Shown here one piece after another: positions 3,453-57,732 of a stretch of 64,000 nucleotides of DNA. The notes under the pieces are model-generated. The model was not told where the DNA came from. It was given only the letters and a program-made list of their open reading frames with translations, and searched no databases. Made by a program: the position numbers and the translations under genes. Positions within the stretch are counted from its first letter, which is position 1, and each line of letters opens with the position of its first letter. The stretch comes from an uncultured Candidatus Saccharibacteria bacterium (GTDB lineage: Bacteria > Patescibacteriota > Minisyncoccia > Minisyncoccales > Staskawiczbacteraceae): NCBI GenBank assembly GCA_964479955.1, contig CAYZNK010000002.1:71489-135488 (forward strand), read 5' to 3'.

Positions 3453-4367
3453 ATGATTACTTATTTAAAAAGGATTTTAAAATTTGCGTTTCAGGATTTT
3501 AACAGAAATAAGGGAATTTCCATTGCTGCAATTTTTGTTTTGATGATTACAATGATGCTTGTAAGCGGAATTTTTCTGACACAGGGAATGATGTCTTACT
3601 TAATTTCCGAAGTAAAAAATAAAATAGATATTACAGCATACTTTAAAGACGACACTTCAGAAGAAGAAATTTTGGCTGTCAAAGATGCAATATTGGCATC
3701 TTCTTCTGACATAAAAAACATAAAATATATTTCAAGGGAGCAGGCTCTGGTATCATTCAATCAAAAGCACGGAGACGATGCGGTTTTATTAAGGGCATTA
3801 GAGCAGGTTGGAGACAACCCGTTTTTGCCGTCTTTAAACATTGTCACAAATGGGGAGACAGCCCAGTATGAGCAGATTTCAAACACACTGGAAACTTCAA
3901 ATTATGCCAAGCTCATTGAAAAAGTTGATTATTCTGAAAAAAAAGATACAATAGAAAAGGTTTATTCAATTACCTCAAATGTCAATAAATTTGGCATAGT
4001 GGCCGGAATTGTTTTAATTATTATTGCAGTTTTAGTTGTTTTCAACACTATAAAGCTGGCTGTTGAGAGCTCAAAGGCGGAAATAAGTACAATGAGAATA
4101 GTTGGGGCTTCCGACTGGTTTGTAAAAGGGCCGTTTATAATCCAAGGGGTTATCTATGGGGTCATAGGATTTTTGATAAGCGCATTATTGCTGGGGATGT
4201 TTACTTATCTGCTCTCACCAAAAATTGCGCTAGTGCTTCCGGGATTTGATTTGTACGATTATTACTTTTCGCGATTTTGGCTCCTGTCTTTAATACAATT
4301 GATTTTTGGAGTTGGTGTGGGAATTGCCTCCAGCCTTATTGTAATAAAAAAGCATTTGGATATTTAG
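3453..4367 (+). CDS. ftsX: cell division permease-like protein FtsX
   Basis: 304 aa with an N-terminal TM, an extracytoplasmic domain and 3 C-terminal TMs. Sits downstream of ftsE. Confidence 0.85.
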   Translation: MITYLKRILKFAFQDFNRNKGISIAAIFVLMITMMLVSGIFLTQGMMSYLISEVKNKIDITAYFKDDTSEEEILAVKDAILASSSDIKNIKYISREQALVSFNQKHGDDAVLLRALEQVGDNPFLPSLNIVTNGETAQYEQISNTLETSNYAKLIEKVDYSEKKDTIEKVYSITSNVNKFGIVAGIVLIIIAVLVVFNTIKLAVESSKAEISTMRIVGASDWFVKGPFIIQGVIYGVIGFLISALLLGMFTYLLSPKIALVLPGFDLYDYYFSRFWLLSLIQLIFGVGVGIASSLIVIKKHLDI

Positions 4368-4381
4368 GAATTTAAAATCAT

Positions 4382-4452
4382 TGCGGGATCGTCTAATGGT
4401 AGGACATCGCCCTCTGGAGGCGAGTATCTTGGTTCGAATCCAAGTCCCGCAG
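4382..4452 (+). tRNA. tRNA-Gln(CUG)
   Basis: Acceptor tgcggga/tcccgca, anticodon arm tcgcc-ctCTGga-ggcga, T arm cttgg-ttcgaat-ccaag. 71 nt. Confidence 0.85.
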
Positions 4453-4454
4453 CA

Positions 4455-4619
4455 TTAGCAATCTTCAATATCTTTAGATATTGAAGATTGGTATTGTTAA
4501 GGCGGACTTTGTATGAGAACCAAGCCCCCGAATTGCGCCGAGCCAACAGGGAACCCCGCCACAGCGGGGCGAGGCGGCAATGCTTTCGAGAACTGCCTTC
4601 GAATCCAAGTCCCGCAGCA
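4455..4619 (+). repeat. tRNA-3'-end-associated hairpin element (copy at tRNA-Gln)
   Basis: Parts in order: a 15-bp AT palindrome (4459-4490), an inverted diverged copy of the tRNA-Gln 3' part, cccccgaattg, the hairpin cgaggc-ggcaat-gctttcg, then an exact 22-nt direct copy of the tRNA 3' end (4598-4619 = 4433-4454). Confidence 0.75.
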
Positions 4620-4739
4620 GTTTGAGTAAATTTTTAGGCGTTGCTAAATGCCTTAAAATTTACTCTTATAACAGCGGATTTTGTATAATAACCTTTAAAA
4701 TGGTTGAGTATATAATATTTCTATAGCGCGTTTTACTTT

Positions 4740-5372
4740 ATGAAAAATATTATGAAAAATAAAATAATAACAATAATAATCTTAATCGTTGTTGTTATAG
4801 TTTTGGCAGGAGGCATTGTTTATTATATAAAACAAAATAAACCAATGTCTGGAATCGGTATTACAGAAAATAATCAGACGGCTAATGAGGAGCAACTACC
4901 AAACAAAATAGTGACTGATGATTTTTCCATTACTCTTCCAATAGGATGGAGCAAAACTACTAATACGGTGCCAGGTGTTTTGGCTTTGGCTGCCAATCCT
5001 AATGAAAAGATTAATGACGAAGCAGCAGAAAAGATTAATTTTAAAAGTTATTTAGCAATAAGTTCCGAAGCGCTTTCCGGAAAAAATTTGGAAGAATATA
5101 TGCAATCTACCAAAAATGAAATACAAGCAACGATTTCCGGAACTATTTTTAGTAATGAAAATGCTTTAATAATAAACAATAGGTCTGCCCGCGCCGTTGA
5201 GGCAGAAATGACTCAGCAGGGAGTGGATTTTAAAGTTTTAATGGTTGTAATCAATGGAAACAGAGATAGTGTTTGGGTATTATCCTACAACACTACAAAA
5301 AATGATTGGGCTGGTTATAAAGATCATTTTGCCGAAAGCGCTAAAAGTTTTATCATAAAGAGTGAAAATTAA
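4740..5372 (+). CDS. membrane-anchored or exported hypothetical protein
   Basis: 210 aa with an N-terminal hydrophobic anchor. No motif recognised. Confidence 0.6.
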   Translation: MKNIMKNKIITIIILIVVVIVLAGGIVYYIKQNKPMSGIGITENNQTANEEQLPNKIVTDDFSITLPIGWSKTTNTVPGVLALAANPNEKINDEAAEKINFKSYLAISSEALSGKNLEEYMQSTKNEIQATISGTIFSNENALIINNRSARAVEAEMTQQGVDFKVLMVVINGNRDSVWVLSYNTTKNDWAGYKDHFAESAKSFIIKSEN

Positions 5373-5670
5373 AAATTGAAAAAAATCCGACAATAGAACA
5401 AAAAGACTTAATACCAATCTCAAGTCTTTTTTTAAGTTTATTTTTGTTTTATTCTTCTGTCTTTGCCGTGGCTTAAATCTAATCTTTTTGCCAAATTGGC
5501 AGGTATTGTTTTAACCCTTAAATTTTTTATAGGGCGGGGGATTGGTTTTTGCCCCTGATTTTTTTTGGAAAAATATTGATTCATGCCTTTATTATACACT
5601 AAAATTAAAAAGCTTTTAATTGCCAAAATTTTTTGTTAAAATAAAATAATAAAATTAAAATTTTAATATT

Positions 5671-7435: not shown

Positions 7436-7455
7436 TTAAACAGGTTTTGTTGCTT

Positions 7456-7482
7456 GGGCATTAATTCAGTGGTAGAACGCTG
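7456..7482 (+). pseudogene. tRNA-Ile 5' fragment (positions about 1-28)
   Basis: gggcattaattcagtggtagaacgctg versus the gene's gggcgattagttcagtggtagaacgctg (1 indel, 1 mismatch). Confidence 0.7.
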
Positions 7483-7502
7483 AACTGGTTAGTGGAAATG
7501 GT

Positions 7503-7577
7503 GGGCGATTAGTTCAGTGGTAGAACGCTGTCCTGATAAGACAGAGGTCAAAGGTCCGATTCCTTTATCGCCCACCA
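7503..7577 (+). tRNA. tRNA-Ile(GAU), CCA encoded
   Basis: Acceptor gggcgat/atcgccc, anticodon arm ctgtc-ctGATaa-gacag, T arm aaagg-tccgatt-ccttt. 75 nt. Confidence 0.85.
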
Positions 7578-7622
7578 TTTCCACTAAAAGCGCACATATA
7601 AAAAATAAATAAAAAAGCTTTG

Positions 7623-7663
7623 TAAGACAGAGGCCAAAAGTCCGATTCCTTTATCGCCCACCA
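7623..7663 (+). pseudogene. tRNA-Ile 3' fragment (positions about 37-76 including CCA)
   Basis: taagacagaggccaaaagtccgattcctttatcgcccacca has 2 mismatches to 7537-7577. Confidence 0.75.
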
Positions 7664-33077: not shown

Positions 33078-33149
33078 GCCATTCTAGCTCAACAGCAGAG
33101 CAATGCTTTTGTAAAGCATAGGTTCCGAGTGCAAATCTCGGGAATGGCT
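33078..33149 (+). tRNA. tRNA-Thr(UGU)
   Basis: Acceptor gccattc/gaatggc, D arm gctc-aacagca-gagc, anticodon arm atgct-ttTGTaa-agcat, T arm ccgag-tgcaaat-ctcgg. 72 nt. Confidence 0.8.
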
Positions 33150-33208
33150 CATTGTGCGACAAGAGCCTCTTACGAGGCTTTTGTTTTAATTTATGGTATA
33201 ATATATTA

Positions 33209-34024
33209 ATGCCACGAGATTTTTATAACAACATAGAATATAAAGAAAGGCAGAGTGCGATAATGAAAGATAATTGGAAAAAGGGGGTTTTTGATTCTTT
33301 GCGAAAGAGTTTAAAAAGAAAATGTAAAATTTGTAATAAAATTTTTGAAGTTAAGCCAAGCAATCCAAAAATTTATTGCTCTCATAAATGTTCTGCCGTA
33401 GCAAGTAATACTGGTAGAATTCAATCAGAAGAGACAAAATTAAAAATTAGAAAAGCTTCGTTGGGCCGAAAAAGTCCTTATAAGGGAATAACAAAAACAC
33501 CAAGAGTTAATATTGTTTGTGAAAATCCCAAATGCAAAAAAGAATTTTTAGCAGAAAAATTTAGAAATAGAAAATATTGTAGCAACAAATGCCACATGGC
33601 AGTAACTGGTGGAAAGCCGACCTCGCCAAGAGCTTCAAGGGGCATGGCAGGAATCAGAAAAGATATAAACGATAAAATTTATTTTTATTCGCGCTGGGAA
33701 GCAAATTATGCGCGCCTGCTGAATTATATTGGAATTGAATGGGAATACCAGCCAAAAACTTTTGATTTAAAAACTCAGCACTACACGCCGGATTTTTATT
33801 TGCCCAAAGCCGACACTTATATTGAAATTAAAAATTTTTTGTGGAAATATTCTAAAATTCGCGACGAAAAATTTAGAAAATTATATCCCGCCATAAAACT
33901 AACTTTACTTTTGAAAGACGATTATTTAAAATTAGAAAATAAATATTCACATTTAATCAAAAACTGGGAATACAGAAATAGTCCATTTGAAGGTGGGTGT
34001 AAAATTCAAAAATTAATTGTTTAA
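33209..34024 (+). CDS. free-standing nuclease-like protein: Zn-ribbon repeats, NUMOD3-like motif and a C-terminal PD-(D/E)xK motif
   Basis: Contains CKICNK...YCSHKC, CENPKCKK...YCSNKC, SEETKLKIRKASLGRKSPYKG and YTPDFYLPKADTYIEIK. The ATG at 33209 lies 7 nt after TATAAT (33197-33202), so it may be leaderless. Confidence 0.55.
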   Translation: MPRDFYNNIEYKERQSAIMKDNWKKGVFDSLRKSLKRKCKICNKIFEVKPSNPKIYCSHKCSAVASNTGRIQSEETKLKIRKASLGRKSPYKGITKTPRVNIVCENPKCKKEFLAEKFRNRKYCSNKCHMAVTGGKPTSPRASRGMAGIRKDINDKIYFYSRWEANYARLLNYIGIEWEYQPKTFDLKTQHYTPDFYLPKADTYIEIKNFLWKYSKIRDEKFRKLYPAIKLTLLLKDDYLKLENKYSHLIKNWEYRNSPFEGGCKIQKLIV

Positions 34025-35713: not shown

Positions 35714-36094
35714 ACATATATAACAATTAAAAACATAAAGACAAAATCACTATATATTCTTCCCGTCATTGCGGGATCCCCCGCTAAGCGGGGGAAAAAC
35801 TAAACAGCGTTTTAAGAATATCCGTGAAGGCAGGTTTTAAAGGTCTGTCTTCACGGGTATTTTTTCTTCTTGGCTGAACGGAAAGCCTTTTGATAATTGA
35901 ATAATGGAAACCAGTTTTAAAAACTGGGAAAAAATTGAATTAGCGGAGTGTCCACAGTACTGAAAATTTCTACGAAAATTTTAGCGCTGAGAGAATTCAC
36001 TTCGTGTAATTCGTTTCTTAAAGTTGTTTCGAATCAAAGCTTGTCGAGTGCTTAACTCGACAGTAGTTTATTCTAACTAGAGTAATCAACTTTT

Positions 36095-37556
36095 TTTTGA
36101 GAGTTTGATCCTAGCTCAGGGTGAACGCTGGTAACGTGGATACCGGCATGCAAGTCGAGCGGACCGCAAGGTCAGCGGCGAACGGCATAGTAACACGTGG
36201 GTACAAACCCTTTTCTCGGGTATAGCCAGCCGAAAGGTTGGGTAATTCCCGATAGTTCTCGCAAGAGTAAAGTCGCAAGACGGAAAAGGATTGGCCCGCG
36301 GCCTATCAGATTGTTGGCAGGGTAACGGCCTACCAAGTCTATGACGGGTAGGGGGCGTGAGAGCGCGACCCCCATGAATGGCACTGCGACACGGGCCATA
36401 CTCCTACGGGAGGCTGCAGTCGAGAATCTTCCGCAATGGGCGAAAGCCTGACGGAGCGACGTTACGTGAATGAAGAAGCCCTTCGGGGTGTAAAGTTCTT
36501 TTATGTGGGAATAAGTTATTGAAGGTACCACATGAATAAGAGGATCCTAATTCTGTGCCAGCAGGAGCGGTAATACAGAATCCTCAAGCGTTACCCGGAT
36601 TTATTGGGCGTAAAGGGTCCGTAGGTGGTAAAGTAAGTTTTGAGTTAAACCTCATCGGCTTAACCTTTGAGCTATTCAAAATACTGCTTTACTTGAGGGC
36701 GTTATGGGTGAACGGAACCGACGGAGTAGGGGTGAAATCCGTTGATATCGTCGGGAACACCAAAAGCGAAGGCAGTTCACTGGGGCGACCCTGACACTGA
36801 GGGACGAAAGCGTGGGTAGCAAAAAGGATTAGATACCCTTGTAGTCCACGCCGTAAATGATGAATACTAGCTATTGGCAGTGTCGACCCTGCCAGTGGCG
36901 AAGCTAACGCGTTAAGTATTCCGCCTAGGAAGTACGGTGGCAACACTAAAACTCAAAGGAATAGACGGGGACTCACACAAGCGGTGGACCATGTGGCTTA
37001 ATTCGACAACAAACGAAGAACCTTACCAGGTCTAGAAATCTGCATGAAAGCCTTCAGAAACGTTGGCCCTTCACAAGACATGCAGACAGGTGCTGCATGG
37101 TTGTCGTCAGTTCGTGTCTTGAGACGTACCGTTAATTCGGGTAACGAACGCAACCCTTGCCGTGTGTTTTAAATGTCACACGGGACTGCCCGAGATAATT
37201 GGGAGGAAGGCGAGGATGACGCCAAATCAGCATGGCCCTTTGATGACCTGGGCCGCACACGTGGTACAATGGCCGGTACAATGGGTTTCGATGCCGCAAG
37301 GCGGAGATTAATCTCATCAAAACCGGTCTCAGTTCGGATTGAGGGCTGAAACCCGCCCTCATGAAGCTGGAATCGCTAGTAATCGCCAATCAGCTATGTG
37401 GCGATGAATACGTTCCTGAGTCTTGTACTCACCGCCCGTCAAGCCAAGCGAGCTGGGGATAGCCGAAGTGCCCGCAAGGGCCCTAAGCTAGATTCAGTAA
37501 GAGGGGCTAAGTCGTAACAAGGCACGGCTAGCGGAAGCTGGTCGTAGATCATTTTT
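36095..37556 (+). rRNA. rrs: 16S rRNA (stand-alone; no linked tRNA or 23S)
   Basis: Starts near gagagtttgatcctagctcag and ends ...aagtcgtaacaaggcacggctagcggaagctggtcgtagatcattttttt. Flanked by a processing stem (36013-36036 pairs with 37690-37713) and a terminator at about 37762-37790. Confidence 0.9.
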
Positions 37557-37840
37557 TTAAAATTTTGTATAGAAACCTTTTGGTTTATATACAAAATGGA
37601 ATGTAGTCGGCTCAGAGTGATTCGATAAACTCAGTTCGATGAGTATATCGAATTGTTCTGAAGCATTTTAGCAGATTTGCTTGAAAATCGCATTCGAAAC
37701 AACTTTAAGAAACTAATTTTTCCACAGAAAAATTATCCTGAGATTTTCGAAGGGTAAGACATTACTCCGTCAAAAGCGGAGTTTTGTTTTGATTAAGGTT
37801 GTTCTTGAAAATTAGTTGGAAAAGAATTAAGCTATCTTAT

Positions 37841-39600: not shown

Positions 39601-39696
39601 CTGGTGGACCCGGGGAGGAGTTGCCCGAAGGCATTGCTGTCGCCTTCGGCGCCACAATTCGGGGGGATTCTCCCCGCGCCACTAAATAAAATTTAG
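39601..39696 (-). repeat. tRNA-3'-end-associated hairpin element (copy at tRNA-Ala)
   Basis: Minus-strand order: AT palindrome actaaat-aaa-atttagt, inverted copy ggcgcggggagaatc, ccccccgaattg, hairpin gaaggc-gacagcaat-gccttc, then a direct copy ctccccgggtccac plus CA. 39604-39617 is identical to 39696-39709. Confidence 0.7.
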
Positions 39697-39767
39697 TGGA
39701 CCCGGGGAGAATCGAACTCCCAGCTTCTCGTTGCAAACGAGATGTGTTGCCACTATACCACGGGCCC
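39697..39767 (-). tRNA. tRNA-Ala(UGC)
   Basis: Acceptor gggcccg/cgggtcc with the G3:U70 pair, anticodon arm tctcg-ttTGCaa-cgaga, T arm gggag-ttcgatt-ctccc. Confidence 0.8.
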
Positions 39768-45235: not shown

Positions 45236-45370
45236 AACCCTATCACCAATTTCAGCCAAGTTAAAAGGTAAGATATACTTTGAAGGCGAAGTGCCTTCGG
45301 CTGTTAATTTTGTAATATAAAGTCAGCGGTGAAATTGGTGAGGGGTTATTGCGACGGTAAGGTATAAATC
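45236..45370. repeat. hairpin-core element, copy A
   Basis: About 80% identical by eye to 57591-57732. Terminal inverted repeat is aaccctatcaccaatttc / gaaattggtgaggggtt, and the inner hairpin is gaagg-cgaagtg-ccttc. Confidence 0.75.
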
Positions 45371-48374: not shown

Positions 48375-49020
48375 ATAATTACATGATGAAAAAACAAACC
48401 AATAAATTTAACAAAACAAGCGGATGATTGTCTGACTTTTTGTGTTAGTAGATGACCGCTTGAATAAGCGGTTTTAAATTTATTGAAAATCAGTTTGCCG
48501 GCGATTGAAAATATAAATTGTTTTCAGCCGCGGGTTAATTGATTGAAGCGGAAGCAAAGATTGCTTTTTGAAAATTTAACCCTGTTAAATGTTTTAAATA
48601 ACAAATTGCCTACCAGCAATTTTTAACAGGTTCTTCCCAATTAATTTTAGACATGGGGTCTTTTTAATTGGGGAAAGTAGGTAAGTCCTGTTAAAATTTT
48701 AACAGGATAAAGCATAAAATTAAGTTCACATTTGCGTTGATGATTCAGCGCAAAAAAGTAAACTTACGCAAAAAGATAAGCTTAACAATTAAGTTTATCG
48801 AAGGATAGGTTATAAGCGAATGGCGGATGCCTTGGGATATTGATGCGATGAAGGACGTGGCGTGCCTGCGATAAGCATCGGGGAGGTGGCTAGCAACCTT
48901 TGATCCGGTGATTTCCGAATGGGAAAACCTTATTGTGTTAATCCACAATAACCCCGCCTTGGCGGGGAGCGTACCCGGTGAAGTGAAACATCTCAGTAGC
49001 CGGAGGAAAAGAGAACAAAA

Positions 49021-49289
49021 GTCCTACAACTTACAAATTTTATCAATTTAGCGAAGCGAATTTTGAGACAAATTCGCGACGCGAGGAGCAGTGCGTGCCA
49101 AGTGGCACGAGAGCGACGAAGCAACAAAGAATTTGGCCAAAATTCGTTCGCCCGAAGGGAAACGAAAAAAATGGCTGATTTCTTTGTTGCAACTTCGTTA
49201 ACGTAGTTAACACTATGTTTCCTCGTTGCGCCTCGAAATCATCACATTTTTTCGTTTCTAAATATGACGAAATTTGTAAGTTGTAGGAC
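49021..49289 (+). other. 23S insertion sequence 1 (IVS-like), closed by a 20-bp perfect helix
   Basis: gtcctacaacttacaaattt (49021-40) pairs with aaatttgtaagttgtaggac (49270-89). It lies between GAGGAAAAGA and AGTAGTGGCGAGCGAA. Confidence 0.75.
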
Positions 49290-49346
49290 AAGTTATATCC
49301 TTAGTAGTGGCGAGCGAAAAGGATACAGCCTAAACTAATTTTTTTA

Positions 49347-49505
49347 CACCGCTACTTTTTGATAATTTTCGTAACGAAATAAAATAATTTTGCGCGAGAA
49401 TTTGGAAATGCAAGGAGGTTTGCCAAGTGGCAAGCCGACGAGCAGTTACAAATTTGTAGCCGAAATTATTAATTGCAGTAGAAAAGTTATCAGAAAGTAG
49501 CGGTG
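49347..49505 (+). other. 23S insertion sequence 2 (IVS-like), closed by a 19-bp helix
   Basis: caccgctactttttgataa pairs with ttatcagaaagtagcggtg (one G-U pair). It shares a gccaagtggca...cgacga.gca block with insertion 1. Confidence 0.7.
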
Positions 49506-49861
49506 AAATTAGGGTTGTAAGGTTGTAGCGTCAGGAGCGTTATTTATTCTTCGTATAGTCGAAGAACGAATAATGCTTGCTGAGAGAGAAAATTTAGATA
49601 AAGGTTTTAATAGAAGCACTCTGGAAAGAGGCGCCATAGAAGGTAATAGCCCTGTATATAAAAAAACTATTTATGCTCTTTGCTATGATACTTGAGTACT
49701 GTCGGGCATGATAACCTGGCAGGAATCTACCGGAACTATCCGGTAAGGCTAAATAATCAATATCACCGATAGTGAACCAGTACCGTGAGGGAAAGGTGAA
49801 AAGCAGGGGGTTGACCCCGATGAAATAGTACCTGAAACCATTTGCTTACAAAGAGTCGGAG

Positions 49862-49943
49862 GTCTTCACCTTTTGGGTGTTGAGTTTAATTGTGGAACAA
49901 AACAATTTCCACAAAAATAATTTGACCTTCAAAAGGTGAAGAC
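49862..49943 (+). other. 23S insertion sequence 3 in the helix-25 region
   Basis: gtcttcacctttt pairs with aaaaggtgaagac, a 13-bp perfect stem. Confidence 0.7.
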
Positions 49944-50586
49944 TGACGGCGTGCTTTTTGTAGAACGAGCCAACGAGTTTGAATAATCAATAGTCTAAGC
50001 CCTTACGGGGCGGAGGCACAGCGAAAGCGAGTGTTAAAAGCGCGAAAAATTATATTGGTTGTTCAAGACCCGAAGCCAGACGAGCTTACCGCGAGCAGGA
50101 TGAACCCGGGCGAAAGCCAGGGGGAGGTCCGAACCAGTGAGTCGTGCAATTCTCTTGGATGACTTGTGGTAAGGAGTGAAAAGCTAATCGAGTTTGGTAA
50201 TAGCTGGTTCTTCCCGAAACAGCTTTGGGGCTGGCGTGTACAAACTATTTTCCGGGGGTAGAGCACTGAATAGAATTCCGTGGAGTTTCTCCAGGTCTTC
50301 TAATCAAACTCCGAATACCGGAAAAACTATGTATGCAGTAAGAACGCGGGGGCTAAGCTCCGCGCTCAAAACGGAAACAGCCGAGATCATCGTCTAAGGT
50401 CCCTAAATTAGGCTAAGTGCTAAGAAGGAGGTATTTTACCCTTGACAGGCAGAAAGTTAGCTTAGAGGTAGCTATCTTTTAAAGAGTGTGTAACAACCCA
50501 CTGCCCAAACTTTCCCGCTTGCGGGAGAGAGGGGTGAGATGCGCCAAAGATTTCCGGGGCTAAAGTCTAATACCGAAGACATGGAT

Positions 50587-50712
50587 TCATTCGCATCACA
50601 CTGCGTGTGATGTTAAATGACCAAAAACCAAAAACCAAAAATATTTAATATTTTGGGATTTGAGAATTGGAATTTGGGAATTTAAGCATCGTGCGAAGCG
50701 CGATGCGAGTGA
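50587..50712 (+). other. 23S insertion sequence 4 in the helix-45 region
   Basis: tcattcgcatc pairs with gatgcgagtga. It contains a CA-repeat / UG-repeat hairpin (50621-50683). Confidence 0.65.
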
Positions 50713-51003
50713 GTGGTAGGGAAGCATTCTGAGGGCATTGAAGCAGGAGGGTAACCGACTGTGGAGCGCTCAGAAGAGAGAATGTTGGCCTGAGTAACCG
50801 CATTGCGCGTGAAAGCCGCGCACACCGAAAGTCCAAGGTTTCCTTGGCAATGGTATTCAACCAAGGGTTAGGCGGTCCTAAGGCAAACCTGAAAGGGGTA
50901 GCTGACGGACAGTTGGTTAATATTCCAACCCTTTTTTATCCGTTCAATAAAGTGCGGAATTTAGTAGGTAAAGCGATTTATTGGATTATCGTTGTTAGTC
51001 AGA

Positions 51004-51030
51004 CCTGTCTGCCGTCAGGCAGGCGCAAGA
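51004..51030 (+). repeat. CCTGYCTG...CAGGCAGG palindromic element, copy inside 23S
   Basis: cctgtctg-ccgt-caggcagg-cgcaaga. Confidence 0.6.
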
Positions 51031-51420
51031 ATGGCTAACGGAAGGTCTCTTTATGGGGCTGACTTTACTGAGCAAGTTTCCAAGAAAAGCTTTATTTAAA
51101 TAGGATAAAGAAACCGTACCGTAAACCGACACAGGTGGACAAGCGTAAGTATGCTAAGGTGAACGGGTGAAACCTCGTTAAGGAACTCGGCAAATCAGTG
51201 GCCGTAAGTTCGCAATATGGCCTGCCCGACACGCAAGTGTTTAGGGCTGCAACAAACGTACTTCAACCGACTGTTTATCAAAAACACAGCTCTCTGCTAA
51301 CTCGTAAGAGGATGTATAGGGGGTGAGGCCTGACCAGTGTTGGAATGTTAAGTTTGGGGGTCCAAGCCGCAAGGTTTGGGCTCACTGAATGAAGCACCAA
51401 TGAACGTCGGCGATAACTAT

Positions 51421-52151
51421 AGACTGACGATTGTAGTTATAAAATTTGGCTATATGCTGGAAACTCCGGGTATGTTGAACTACTATCCGTTACTATGATA
51501 AAATATATAGTAATGGAAGTAAAAATGTTTAAACGCGGACAATCAGCAGGAAAGACTTTTGACGAGAAACTCGCTAACTACTTGAGCGGTTTTACTGATG
51601 GCGAAGGAAGCTTCAATATTTCAGTAATTAATCGTGAGAAAGACTATAAACACGGCTGGAAAATCAGCTTGTGTTTCAATATTTCTCAAAAAGATGACAC
51701 AATACCAAGATTATTTAAGGATTTTCTTGATTGCGGTAAAATAAGATACCGCAAAGATGGAATTTGTTATTTTGATGTTAGAAAAACAAAAGATTTAACA
51801 AATATTGTTGTGCCATTCTTTAAAAAATTTCCAGTGCGTTCAAAGAAAAATGAAACTTTTCAGATTTTTTGTGAGGCGTTGGAGATTGTTAAATGTAAAA
51901 AACATTTAACAAAATCCGGAATGAAAAAAATTCTGGATTTGAGAAATAAAATTGTAGTTGGCAGAAAAAGAAAGTATACAAATTCAGAGATACTTTCTAC
52001 TTATAATCAAAAGAATCCTCAGAGACTATACGCCAAACCCCGCTTAGCGGGGAAGATATAGTCCGACCTGCATAGCGATATGCAGAATATAATAGAAATA
52101 TTATATCAAGATACTAAAACTGACTTAATTTAGTATTAGTAACATAAAAAG
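51421..52151 (+). mobile_element. group I intron in the helix-69 loop (after the U equivalent to E. coli U1917)
   Basis: The exon ends ...gataactaT and resumes aatcgtccaaaggtagcg. Intron guide gtagttat (51433-40) pairs with the 8 exon nt ataactat via G-U at the splice site. The intron ends in G and has the core motif aagatatagtccgacc. Confidence 0.8.
51495..52061 (+). CDS. LAGLIDADG homing endonuclease (intron-encoded)
   Basis: YLSGFTDGEGSFNISV motif. The ORF lies inside intron 1 and ends within the core motif. Confidence 0.8.
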   Translation: MIKYIVMEVKMFKRGQSAGKTFDEKLANYLSGFTDGEGSFNISVINREKDYKHGWKISLCFNISQKDDTIPRLFKDFLDCGKIRYRKDGICYFDVRKTKDLTNIVVPFFKKFPVRSKKNETFQIFCEALEIVKCKKHLTKSGMKKILDLRNKIVVGRKRKYTNSEILSTYNQKNPQRLYAKPRLAGKI

Positions 52152-52815
52152 AATCGTCCAAAGGTAGCGTAATCCCTTGCCGGGTAAGTTCCGGCCCGCA
52201 TGAATGGCTTAACGAGTTGAAGACTGTCTCAACGAGGTGCCCGGTGAAAATGCAATAGCAGTGAAGATGCTGCTTACCTGCGGCTAGACGGGAAGACCCC
52301 GGAAGCTTTACTGTAGTTTGATATTGGGTTATGGTTTTTAATGCGTAGCGTAGTGGGGAGGATATGAAACGGCATTTTCGGATGTCGCGGATCCGCCAAT
52401 GAAACACCCATCTTTGGGAATTATAATTCTAATCCACGCCTCAACGGCGGGTGACAGTGTTAAACGGGCAGTTTAAGTGGGGCACTTGCCTCCTAAAAAG
52501 TAATGGAGGCGTTTAAAGGTCAGCTAGCTTCGGATGGAAATCGAAGCGATAGTGTAAAGGCAAAAGCTGGCTTTACTGCAAGACGGCTATGTCACGCAGT
52601 TGCGAAAGCAGAACTTAGTGAACCGACTTGTTTTTATAGAAAACAAGAAGATCATCAGCCAAAAGCTACTCCGGGGATAACAGGCTGGTAGAGCCCGAGC
52701 GTCCATAGCGACGGCTCTGTTCGGCACCTCGATGTCGGCTCAACTTATCCTGGGGCTGGAGCAGGTCCCAAGGGTCCGGCTGTTCGCCGGTTAAAAAGTT
52801 ACGCGAGCTGGGTTC

Positions 52816-52846
<31 letters not shown>

Positions 52847-52884
52847 ACCGCAGGCGTTGAGTTTTGAGGAGATTTGTTCCTAGT

Positions 52885-53667
52885 AAAATTTTGCTACTTC
52901 GTAAAGTAATTTACGATGACAATTCGGCTAATAACGGTGAAACCTTAAAAGTTATGGTTCGTTGATAATCATTATTGAATTCGGTCCAATAATAATGGTA
53001 CAATTAACTTGAGGACCAATAATAATTTAAGGCAATACCGTGGGAAGTCAATCTAAAATAAATTTATCATATATAGCAGGTTTTCTGGACGGAGATGGCA
53101 GTCTTATGTTTCAAATAAAGAAGCGCAAAGATTGCAAATTAAAAAGTAGATTTATGGCAACTGTTTGTTTTTACCAAGACGGTCGCCACGAAAAACCACT
53201 TTTTTGGATCAAAAGAATTCTCGGTATCGGTTTTATTTCCCGTCGTAAAGATGGAATGACCGAACTGAGAATAAATGGCTTTAAACAAGTAAAAGAAATT
53301 TTGCAAAAGTTAATGCCGTTCATTAGATTTAAAAGAGAACAGGCAAAAGCCCTTTATGGAGCTGTTAGTCTTTTAAATCAAAAAGAAACAAGGTTATTAG
53401 ACAAAAAAGATTTACTAAAATTAGTGAATTTTATAATAACCATCCAAAAAAATAATTACATCGCCAGAAAAAAGAAAACCAAAGCAGATATTTTTAAAAT
53501 TTTAGGTCTGACCCCGTAACGACTGATCCTGAGTCCTGAGTTTATTGAAGGACGAAGGAGAGATAGAAGTGAGATATCTTCTATAACATGCCGACTCCCC
53601 AATTCGCCAGTTGGCGAAAGGGAGAAGATATAGTCTATGCACGTGGTGACACGTGGTTTAAAACATG
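52885..53667 (+). mobile_element. group I intron inside the sarcin-ricin loop (after the U equivalent to E. coli U2656)
   Basis: The exon reads ...ttcctagT | intron | ACGAGAGGACCGG. Guide gcta (52893-96) pairs with exon tagt via G-U. The intron ends in G and has the core motif agaagatatagtc. Confidence 0.7.
53040..53519 (+). CDS. LAGLIDADG homing endonuclease (intron-encoded)
   Basis: YIAGFLDGDGSLMFQI motif. 159 aa with a GTG start, inside intron 2. Confidence 0.8.
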   Translation: MGSQSKINLSYIAGFLDGDGSLMFQIKKRKDCKLKSRFMATVCFYQDGRHEKPLFWIKRILGIGFISRRKDGMTELRINGFKQVKEILQKLMPFIRFKREQAKALYGAVSLLNQKETRLLDKKDLLKLVNFIITIQKNNYIARKKKTKADIFKILGLTP

Positions 53668-53985
53668 ACGAGAGGACCGGAATGAACTGACCTCTGGTGT
53701 ACCAGTTGTTCTGCCAAGAGCATCGCTGGGTAGCTAAGTCGGGAATAGATAAGCGCTGAAAGCATATAAGCGCGAAACTAACTCCAAGATGAGAACTCAA
53801 GACCCTTAAAGGTCTAATGATTCCCCGCAGATGACGGGGTTGATAGGCTCCAGGTGTAAGTCCCGTAAGGGATTCAGCCGGGGAGTACTAATAAATCATT
53901 TATCCTTCGATATACTTAGTTTTTAAGTTATCGGGTAAGTTTACAGAACTTAATTTTAAATTTTCAAATCCGGAAATTGAGTTTT

Positions 53986-54098
53986 CCGGTGGCGACTATG
54001 CTGGAGTTGTCCCACCTGATCCCATTCCGAACTCAGAAGTGAAATACTCTAAGGCCGATGGTAGCGCTTATGCGCGAGAGTAGGTAGTTGCCACCAGA
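53986..54098 (+). rRNA. rrf: 5S rRNA
   Basis: ccggtggcgactatgc...cccattccgaactcagaagtgaaa...gtaggtagttgccaccag. Confidence 0.85.
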
Positions 54099-57590: not shown

Positions 57591-57732
57591 AACCCCATCA
57601 CCAATTTCATTCAAATAAAAGGTAAGACATAGTTTTGAAAGGCGAAGCGCTTTCGGCTGTCAGTGTTGCGATACAAAGTCAGTGGTAAAATTGGTGAGGG
57701 GTTTTGCGGCGGTAAATGTAATTATCCGCCGC
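57591..57732. repeat. hairpin-core element, copy B
   Basis: Terminal inverted repeat aaccccatcaccaatttc / aaaattggtgaggggtt and inner hairpin gaaag-gcgaagcg-ctttc. Homologous to 45236-45370. Confidence 0.75.

Follow-up and report, generated by a model that had tools for sequence, protein, structure and literature searches.

Introduction

Transfer RNA (tRNA) genes are targets of genomic islands and prophages equipped with tyrosine integrases, and the tRNA-targeting integrative elements were reportedly sorted into sublocation classes by Williams in 2002. Here we describe a structured unit of 165 nt located 3' of a tRNA-Gln gene in a 64,000-nt stretch of contig CAYZNK010000002.1 (hereafter the window), together with a second copy of the element located 3' of tRNA-Ala in the same stretch. 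As in tRNA-integrating elements, the unit lies at the 3' part of a tRNA gene that would have been restored by an element-borne copy, relatives provide an apparent empty site, and a displaced direct repeat of 14-22 nt runs from the T-arm to just past the discriminator. Unlike those elements, its body measures ~80-145 bp and carries neither an integrase nor any other open reading frame (ORF), it includes an inverted copy of the target and a hairpin core, and no crossover motif is common to the Gln and Ala copies.

Folded single-strand recombination sites are known from integron attC sites and from Xer-exploiting elements; the attP(+) site of the CTX phage is said to have been described as such a site by Val et al. 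in 2005. Our element is similar to these in that a site and its inverted, mismatched partner form an imperfect hairpin (H1, below), in that structure is kept above sequence, and in the variable length of the central hairpin. In addition, its integrated order (site, rest, site) is compatible with theirs, and its enzyme, too, would act in trans. In contrast, neither dif XerC/XerD arms nor GTTRRRY/RYYYAAC core sites are present at the repeat boundaries, the target is a tRNA gene, the inverted copy exceeds the duplicated block, and both a link to XerCD or IntI and a single-stranded intermediate are hypothetical here.

Bacterial palindromic repeats resembling miniature inverted-repeat transposable elements (MITEs), such as Correia, RPE, REPIN and ERIC, share with the element a length of 80-170 bp, the lack of an ORF, the shape of a rod-like imperfect palindrome, mobilisation that would occur in trans and possible transcription. 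The element departs from them in having no fixed short target-site duplication, its repeats being tRNA-specific and 22 and 14 nt long, in the internal rather than terminal position of its inverted copy, and in outer arms that are copies of the adjacent tRNA rather than terminal repeats proper to the element; moreover, it was seen only next to tRNA genes, with two copies in 64 kb. Freestanding homing-endonuclease cassettes, for instance the Allomyces atp6 GIY-YIG element and the T4 seg genes, bring with them a replacement piece of their target. Here too a part of the target is duplicated and the gene kept functional, tRNA-Gln is a hot spot in relatives, and GC-rich hairpins mark the junctions. 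However, no GIY-YIG, LAGLIDADG or HNH ORF belongs to the element, and the GIY-YIG cassettes of the related loci L003, L004 and L054 lie on the 5' side of tRNA-Gln, whereas the element lies on the 3' side and no sequence similarity between the two was found. Finally, group I introns that interrupt tRNA genes of Patescibacteria sit in the anticodon loop, at position 35/36, and are self-splicing (PMC13011429). The phylum and the choice of tRNA genes as targets are the same, but in our case the tRNA is uninterrupted, the insert of 95-165 nt is too small, and no Rfam intron model matches.

Results

The tRNA-Gln locus

The intact tRNA-Gln gene is followed by a unit of 165 nt, with a body of ~143 bp, whose last 22 nt repeat the tRNA 3' end exactly. 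This 22-mer, TTCGAATCCAAGTCCCGCAGCA, occurs exactly twice in the window, at 4433-4454 and 4598-4619, and no third occurrence appears even at 3 mismatches; with the same tolerance, 0 of 100 shuffled sequences matched. The duplication had been pointed out in an earlier note, made from the sequence alone, and it stands, as does the statement that the second copy is not a tRNA: neither ARAGORN nor Rfam calls one in that region. The parts of the locus, all on the plus strand, are as follows.

4382-4453, plus strand: intact tRNA-Gln, anticodon CTG (ARAGORN; Rfam tRNA model, 61.6 bits)
4433-4454, plus strand: first direct copy (DC1), made of T-loop, T-stem 3' strand, acceptor 3' strand, G73 and CA
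4428-4524, plus strand: H1, a 97-nt quasi-palindrome; its left arm combines the T-arm and 3' end of the tRNA with the new trailer, its right arm being their inverted copy
4459-4490, plus strand: AT-rich top of H1, with arms at 4459-4473 and 4476-4490, followed by a conserved GGTATT
4502-4524, plus strand: inverted imperfect copy (IC) of tRNA positions 49-72, 74% complementary to 4428-4450
4525-4597, plus strand: conserved GC-rich core, 62% GC against ~35% nearby
4525-4535, plus strand: core part CCCCCGAATTG
4532-4535 with 4578-4581, plus strand: core pairing P1 (AUUG/CAAU), from comparison of related copies
4536-4539 with 4573-4576, plus strand: core pairing P2 (CGCC/GGCG), from comparison of related copies
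4554-4569, plus strand: inner hairpin of the core, CCCCGC-CACA-GCGGGG
4583-4590, plus strand: UUCG-loop hairpin of the core, from comparison of related copies
4591-4597, plus strand: core linker
4598-4619, plus strand: second direct copy (DC2), the exact repeat of the tRNA-Gln 3' end
4620-4668, plus strand: native tRNA-Gln trailer with a terminator-like hairpin (~4624-4665), from its inverted repeat and from alignment to the L001 and L003 flanks

For comparison we used the ftsX loci of 43 metagenome contigs, together with further loci obtained by exact-protein look-up, and every tRNA in the fetched loci was scanned for nearby copies of its own ends. The genes upstream of the locus are prfB, ftsE and ftsX, and the named homologues of its FtsX belong to Candidatus Staskawiczbacteria or Patescibacteria. 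The 23S rRNA gene bears an insertion of ~1.1 kb and is unlinked from the 16S gene, both features being typical of the candidate phyla radiation (CPR).

In L001, L002 and L046, whose FtsX is 94% identical to that of the window, the same element is found 3' of tRNA-Gln. In L003 and L047 (77% identical), the tRNA-Gln is instead directly joined to ..TCGTGGACTTTTTAAGTAAAGTT..., and this flank is the one that follows DC2 in L001, with 74% identity over ~100 nt, the window flank being more diverged. Since the L003 flank is joined straight to the tRNA, L003/L047 represent the empty site, and DC2 with its downstream hairpin is the original tRNA end and trailer; that DC2 is contiguous with the native flank likewise identifies it as the displaced original end. 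On this comparison the 165-nt unit is an insertion.

Structure and pairing of the element

The DNA fold of H1, which starts at the T-stem 5' strand, reaches -24.3 kcal/mol, compared to -6.3 for shuffled sequences (z-score, z, -8.0). Across five copies z ranges from about -6 to -8.5, with -7.1 in the more distant locus L057 and -5.9 in L001, and the copies of the window, L001 and L057 have in common a bulged C and the mismatches. Both the AT palindrome and the diverged inverted copy listed in the earlier note are present; however, they are one structure and not the separate parts proposed there, the whole forming the quasi-palindrome 4428-4524. The AT-rich top looks like a terminator, and its arms differ in L001 and L057 with the pairing retained, as expected of co-variation.

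The IC can also fold on its own (CUUUG-loop-CCAAG). Its calculated duplex energy with the tRNA side is -22.7 kcal/mol at tRNA-Gln and -34.5 kcal/mol at tRNA-Ala, against -12.2 (shuffled -10.8 +/- 2.5) and -24.6 kcal/mol, respectively, for its duplex with DC2. Both the IC and the 22-nt copy are unchanged in L001, L002 and L046, in which the hairpins carry substitutions. In L057 the tRNA reads CTAGG/CCTAG where the window reads CTTGG/CCAAG, so that a T-stem U-A pair has become A-U, and the IC is altered at both mirrored positions; of its three differences two mirror this change, and the other mismatches are kept. The mirrored change would fit pairing of the IC with the whole T-arm, as in H1, or the IC's own hairpin, but not pairing with DC2 alone, and the duplex energies agree with this. 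A helix between IC and DC2 had been considered as the main closing helix and was downgraded, since in the Gln copies it is no stronger than the shuffled level, and in L091 and L093 its pairing is decayed. Single-sequence folds from IC to DC2 gave z of +0.3 to -3.0, and the fold of the tRNA-plus-element transcript gave -5.1.

In the core, compensatory or wobble changes preserve the pairings. P2 takes the form CGCC/GGCG in the window and UGCC/GGCG in L001; in L057 it is CGACGAG/CUCGUCG, and both L091 and L093 have CUCGCC-loop-GGCGAG. The GC hairpin of the earlier note is recovered as CCCCGC-CACA-GCGGGG; in L001 one of its pairs is G.U, and in L057 GUCGC-GAA-GCGAC stands in its place. The hairpin given there as conserved, cgaggc/gctttcg, is not borne out, the related copies supporting instead AUUG/CAAU, CGCC/GGCG and the UUCG-loop hairpin, whose stem pairs CU with AG in the window and CC with GG in most copies. 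In addition, an IC hairpin GGGGA-GAA-UCCCC becomes GGAGA-GAA-UCUCC in L093. On the tRNA-sense strand, G.U cells number ~11 and A.C cells ~3; this excess of G.U over A.C indicates that the folded strand is the tRNA strand at both loci.

A second copy at tRNA-Ala

A signature of the conserved core, CCCCCGAATTG ... GCAATGCCTTCGGGCAAC, is present in both window copies. The earlier note had suggested a search for the core modules beside other tRNAs, and such a search is rewarded downstream of tRNA-Ala on the minus strand, where CCCCCGAATTG lies at 39665-39655 and AGGCG..GCCTTCG at 39645-39626. Reading along the minus strand, the order is tRNA, a short hairpin CCACTAAAT-TTT-ATTTAGTGG, the inverted copy GGCGCGGGGAGAATC, the shared core and DC2.

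39696-39767, minus strand: tRNA-Ala (anticodon TGC), in which the final 14 nt (39709-39696) make up DC1 of the Ala element
39604-39695, minus strand: Ala element, whole, 3' of tRNA-Ala
39661-39713, minus strand: H1 of the Ala element, in which the tRNA 3' part and the trailer CTAAAT pair with ATTTAG and the inverted copy (DNA fold -21.9 kcal/mol, z -7.6)
39680-39666, minus strand: inverted imperfect copy GGCGCGGGGAGAATC
39618-39665, minus strand: core, CCCCCGAATTG-TGG-CGCC-GAA-GGCG-ACAG-CAATG-CCTTCGGG-CAACTC
39604-39617, minus strand: DC2, repeating the last 14 nt of tRNA-Ala exactly, CTCCCCGGGTCCAC; the next bases are CAG, which makes it read ACCA
~39587-39558, minus strand: native trailer and terminator beyond DC2

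As at tRNA-Gln, the hairpin proximal to the tRNA extends into the tRNA itself. Because the same core is found at Gln and Ala, the core is the common part of the element and the arms are tRNA-specific. At its end the Ala copy reads ACCA, and a G.U is retained at a 3:70-like position. Its IC matches the trailer of the gene (ACTA giving TAGT) and not ACCA, and its mismatches fall in the acceptor stem. For this reason the IC was discarded as a cDNA of mature tRNA or a primer-binding site.

Distribution in relatives

Altogether, seven distinct copies of the element were found in Staskawiczbacteria-like metagenome contigs: further copies and conservation of the element in relatives, the lack of which the earlier note had named as grounds for rejecting its proposal. 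The copies beyond the window are those of L001/L002/L046 and L057 at tRNA-Gln, and of L089/L090, L091 and L093 at tRNA-Ala. The Gln copies represent three lineages with the same ~143 bp interior, and the Ala copies, four distinct ones on five contigs, have the same core and bodies of 78-109 nt. A relaxed regular-expression search and blastn-short over the fetched loci (~0.8 Mb) gave no further copies. MAFFT alignment was unreliable across the variable hairpin region.

The distribution is patchy. L057 (FtsX 67% identical) has a diverged copy 3' of tRNA-Gln(TTG), and its closest relatives, L058 (95% FtsX identity) and L079 (93%), do not have the element. Similarly, L098 and L099, which share their samples of origin with L002 and L046 and have FtsX 95% identical to that of the window, show another tRNA-Gln allele and no 3' element; their locus also includes a 5' piece of tRNA whose D-loop holds a GC hairpin of 40 nt. 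Copies of the Ala element occur in L089/L090, where the neighbouring gene is 90% identical, and in L093 (87%).

In L091 (2816-3050; neighbouring gene 88% identical), the tRNA-Ala is gone and only its last bases and the trailer CCACTAAA remain beside the element, with unrelated ORFs upstream of it. A larger insertion, or a rearrangement, may thus have taken place precisely where the tRNA-Ala gene ends on its 3' side.

Conservation of the element

The element evolves more slowly than third codon positions. Specifically, the Gln body of the window is 84.8% identical to that of L001, compared to 73.4% for the third codon positions of ftsX and 49% for the adjacent flank, and the Ala body is 92.3% identical to that of L089, compared to 67.3% for the third positions of the neighbouring gene. 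Outside P2 the Ala core is 97-100% conserved, including L091 and L093, in which the tRNA-derived arms have drifted.

Coding capacity and database searches

The sole ORF of at least 50 aa over the element encodes 60 aa from a TTG start on the opposite strand (4364-4546) and crosses the tRNA gene; we have taken it as spurious. In Rfam 15 only tRNAs match, and permissive E-values gave no consistent family for the Gln copies (window and L002) or the Ala copies (window and L093), the best other hits being different from copy to copy; weak matches of the Ala copy to the glycine riboswitch and to permuted tmRNA were far below threshold and are not seen in the Gln copies. A blastn comparison with phages gave nothing relevant, and a literature search found no description of the element. 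As for promoters in the interval between tRNA and core, the search returned only a weak extended -10-like sequence, TGGTATTNT, located 3' of the AT hairpin, with no counterpart at tRNA-Ala.

Two further interpretations of the locus were rejected. The segment from IC through the core to DC2 is not a minus-strand pseudo-tRNA, since it has no D or anticodon arms, receives no tRNA call and has G.U pairs favouring the plus strand. An intron made of the tRNA 5' part, a 165-nt insert and DC2, as seen in the minimum-energy fold, is unneeded, the tRNA being contiguous and no intron model matching.

Other insertions around tRNA and rRNA genes

In these genomes, tRNA genes are hot spots for small insertions. 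In the window, the functional tRNA-Ile (7503-7577) is nested in fragments of an older tRNA-Ile (7455-7662), that is, a decayed 5' part at 7455-7483 and a 3' part at 7620-7662, which extends from the anticodon loop to CCA (41 nt, 2 mismatches). Leader and trailer of the functional copy form an inverted repeat around it, ttagtggaaatggt / accatttccactaa, and the locus looks like a replacement tRNA cassette. The tRNA-Thr(TGT) gene (33078-33150) is followed, at most 2 nt further on, by a 290-aa ORF with a NUMOD3 motif (33078-34024 overall), and different genes occupy this spot in L089. NUMOD3 is a DNA-binding module of homing endonucleases.

The 23S rRNA match measures 4079 nt against the 2925 positions of the model (48803-54096), owing to the ~1.1 kb insertion, which bears a LAGLIDADG ORF (51495-52061); a second LAGLIDADG ORF (53040-53519) lies between the 23S and 5S genes, and the 16S gene (36093-37559) is 11 kb away from the 23S gene, unlinked. 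Two 88%-identical structured copies of ~105 nt, at 45238-45345 and 57595-57700, are located ~3.5 kb upstream of the 23S and ~3.5 kb downstream of the 5S gene; each has a 16-bp closing stem, AACCCYATCACCAATTT / AAATTGGTGAGGGGTT, and an internal GAAGGC-GAAG-GCCTTC hairpin, and neither has an Rfam match at E<=1.

Among the relatives, GIY-YIG ORFs of 84-100 aa lie between a duplicated 5' tRNA-Gln fragment and the intact tRNA in L003 (10926-11310), L004 (11036-11429), L078 and L054 (~5100-5500), and in L098 (1829-1995) an AT spacer takes the place of the ORF. The 5' fragments are 15-21 nt long and often hold a GC-rich single or double hairpin of 30-40 nt in the D-loop. These loci are the 5'-side counterpart of the 3' element. 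In L070 (7016-7200), L054 (5230-5500), L065, L075 and L076, a complete tRNA-Gln with leader/trailer inverted repeats of ~10 nt, a replacement tRNA cassette, stands beside remnants of another allele. The remnant of L070, an old 3' end of a different allele, has its T-loop split by two GC hairpins, and the old tRNA of L054 has hairpins in the D, anticodon and T loops.

In L051 (11005-11178), tRNA-Gln is followed by a different insertion of ~130 nt. The direct repeat that flanks it consists of CCA and 22 trailer nucleotides (tcacatgctaagtc.ggtgact), and at its end stands a diverged sequence resembling a tRNA 3' part. In L004, L073, L055 and L079, too, the motif tcacatgctaagtcaggtgactga.. from this trailer recurs after tRNA-Gln, and may be a conserved trailer RNA. 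Finally, ~150 nt past the element in L001 (11300-11787), as well as in L002, there is an ORF with an excisionase-like helix-turn-helix (HTH) and the start of a DNA methyltransferase (DGSIDLIITS), which are not in the window and possibly represent another mobile insertion into the same variable region, which extends from ftsX to the DUF4234 gene.

Discussion

The data presented here depict an element that looks like a new miniature mobile element. We favour, with about an even chance of its being correct, the hypothesis of a non-autonomous, ORF-less, structured insertion element that targets tRNA 3' ends, forms a family in Staskawiczbacteria-like CPR bacteria and is moved in trans. The hypothesis is directly supported by the insertion and its flanking repeats, by the existence of a family, by the compensatory changes in the hairpins, by the strand bias, by a conservation above the neutral level and by the patchy occurrence. 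The proposal of the earlier note, an att-type duplication around a miniature element, gains accordingly from the empty site of L003/L047, the tRNA-Ala member, the further copies and this patchiness; an integrase, a parent element and a recombination mechanism did not emerge.

We infer a recombination chemistry, a single-stranded intermediate and an enzyme acting in trans, which would fit together as follows. The free element would contain one copy of the tRNA 3' segment, and recombination with the same segment of a chromosomal tRNA gene would generate the att-type duplication, in which the tRNA would be restored by the element-borne 3' segment and the old segment left behind as the second repeat. 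After insertion, the order would be the intact tRNA (its 3' segment being DC1), the new trailer, the IC, which would form H1, the rod-like core, and DC2 with the native trailer and terminator. The att site would be presented as a folded single strand, with H1 on the tRNA-sense strand, like CTX phage attP or integron attC; such a folded site is proposed because a body of only 80-145 bp could not form a duplex circle, and because the element brings along an imperfect complement of its target. The enzyme would be provided in trans and not encoded by the element, and the conserved core may serve as a protein-binding or folding module. A variant of this hypothesis, homing by double-strand-break repair through the homing endonucleases that are common around tRNAs in these genomes, is indistinguishable from it on the present data.

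Several observations weigh against this hypothesis. The blocks of identity are unequal, 22 nt from the T-loop at tRNA-Gln and 14 nt from the T-stem at tRNA-Ala, and the repeat boundaries share no crossover motif such as GTTRRRY. Part of the IC corresponds to the T-stem 5' strand, a strand not included in the duplicated block; this suits the integrated state, or the target, more than it does a free circle. Pairing of the IC with the direct copy has decayed in L091 and L093 with the core conserved at 97-100%, and the function of the core may therefore be independent of the tRNA-derived arms. No recombinase, integrase or transposase domain was detected by Pfam in the 26 window ORFs scanned, and no autonomous parent element in any locus examined; the tyrosine integrase or full-length parent for which the earlier note had suggested looking is thus absent from both. 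Neither an excised form nor its junction was seen. In addition, exact-motif scans of the GTDB species representatives and of IMG/VR returned chance matches or none, those of the core patterns being coding DNA of unrelated genomes; the family therefore looks narrow, and, as these scans required exact motifs, diverged copies would escape them.

The IC might also act as a built-in guide. The folded element, as DNA or RNA, would rebuild or pair with the T-arm and acceptor site of the target tRNA gene, a trans-acting recombinase or structure-specific nuclease would insert it, and swapping the arms (Gln or Ala) on the same core would retarget it. We regard this possibility as rather improbable.

Function as an RNA is the main rival to a mobile element, because the core is conserved and the structure strand-specific; the earlier note, too, had named as its alternative an RNA that mimics the tRNA 3' half or pairs with it. 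The unit would then be a tRNA-linked non-coding RNA gene, not itself mobile, co-transcribed with the tRNA or expressed after it, whose IC pairs with the tRNA 3' half or with DC2; it would serve as a tRNA-3'-end mimic, a sponge or a processing module, for example a minihelix-like substrate of RNase P, RNase Z or the CCA-adding enzyme. At both loci all hairpins form on the tRNA-sense strand, which is also the strand favoured by the G.U pairs, the UUCG tetraloop shows a compensatory change from CC/GG to CU/AG, and the Ala core is 97-100% conserved even where the tRNA is missing (L091). The slower evolution than at third codon positions, the ACCA end and 3:70-like G.U of the Ala copy, and the z of -5.1 for the tRNA-plus-element transcript point the same way. 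However, the element is absent from the equally close L098/L099, L058 and L079 and so is not a core host gene. The IC pairs much better with the tRNA side than with DC2, the Gln IC:DC2 helix is no better than shuffled controls, z is weak for the single-sequence folds from IC to DC2, Rfam holds no match and no convincing promoter lies between tRNA and core; on balance we consider an RNA gene unlikely.

Another explanation is a rearrangement scar rather than an element, in which endonuclease cleavage or replication template switching would have produced a direct-inverted-direct arrangement of the tRNA 3' part and captured a GC-rich hairpin filler. The order of DC1, IC and DC2 resembles a tandem-inversion duplication with palindromic junctions, and the IC, being a copy of the gene trailer (CTA in Ala) rather than of mature CCA, is of DNA origin. 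Homing-endonuclease genes abound near tRNAs (NUMOD3 after tRNA-Thr and LAGLIDADG in the window; GIY-YIG in relatives), and fragment duplications with GC hairpins occur at other tRNAs (tRNA-Ile of the window; L003, L004, L054, L070 and L098). A pure scar is nonetheless improbable, because two tRNAs and the distant lineage L057 have the same core and architecture, and independent scars would not share at least 35 core bases; moreover, the new trailer in H1 differs from the native one, and both the above-neutral conservation and the compensatory changes oppose it. Much the least probable is that a large island or prophage, once integrated at the tRNA, lost its interior by deletion, so that only attL, attR and arm sequences are left. 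Such islands are classically recognised by direct repeats of a tRNA 3' end, unrelated genes lie between tRNA-Ala and element in L091, and an excisionase-like HTH and a methylase lie downstream in L001. Yet independent deletions would not have left the same ~143 bp interior in three Gln lineages and the same core in the Ala copies, and that interior is a conserved set of hairpins, with no integrase remnant or ORF fragment inside.

In conclusion, selfish insertions are densely packed in the tRNA and rRNA genes of CPR bacteria, despite the tiny size of the genomes. The element described here represents a further class, very small and free of genes, whose members insert at tRNA 3' ends and leave the tRNA unbroken. 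The partial tRNA duplicates and locus haplotypes that accompany such insertions can mislead tRNA annotation, the prediction of att sites and islands, and strain-level metagenome assembly. If the hairpin is indeed a folded attachment site or a guide, the element would extend single-strand recombination of the CTX/attC type to tRNA targets, and would offer a compact way of retargeting insertion through the swap of a short arm.

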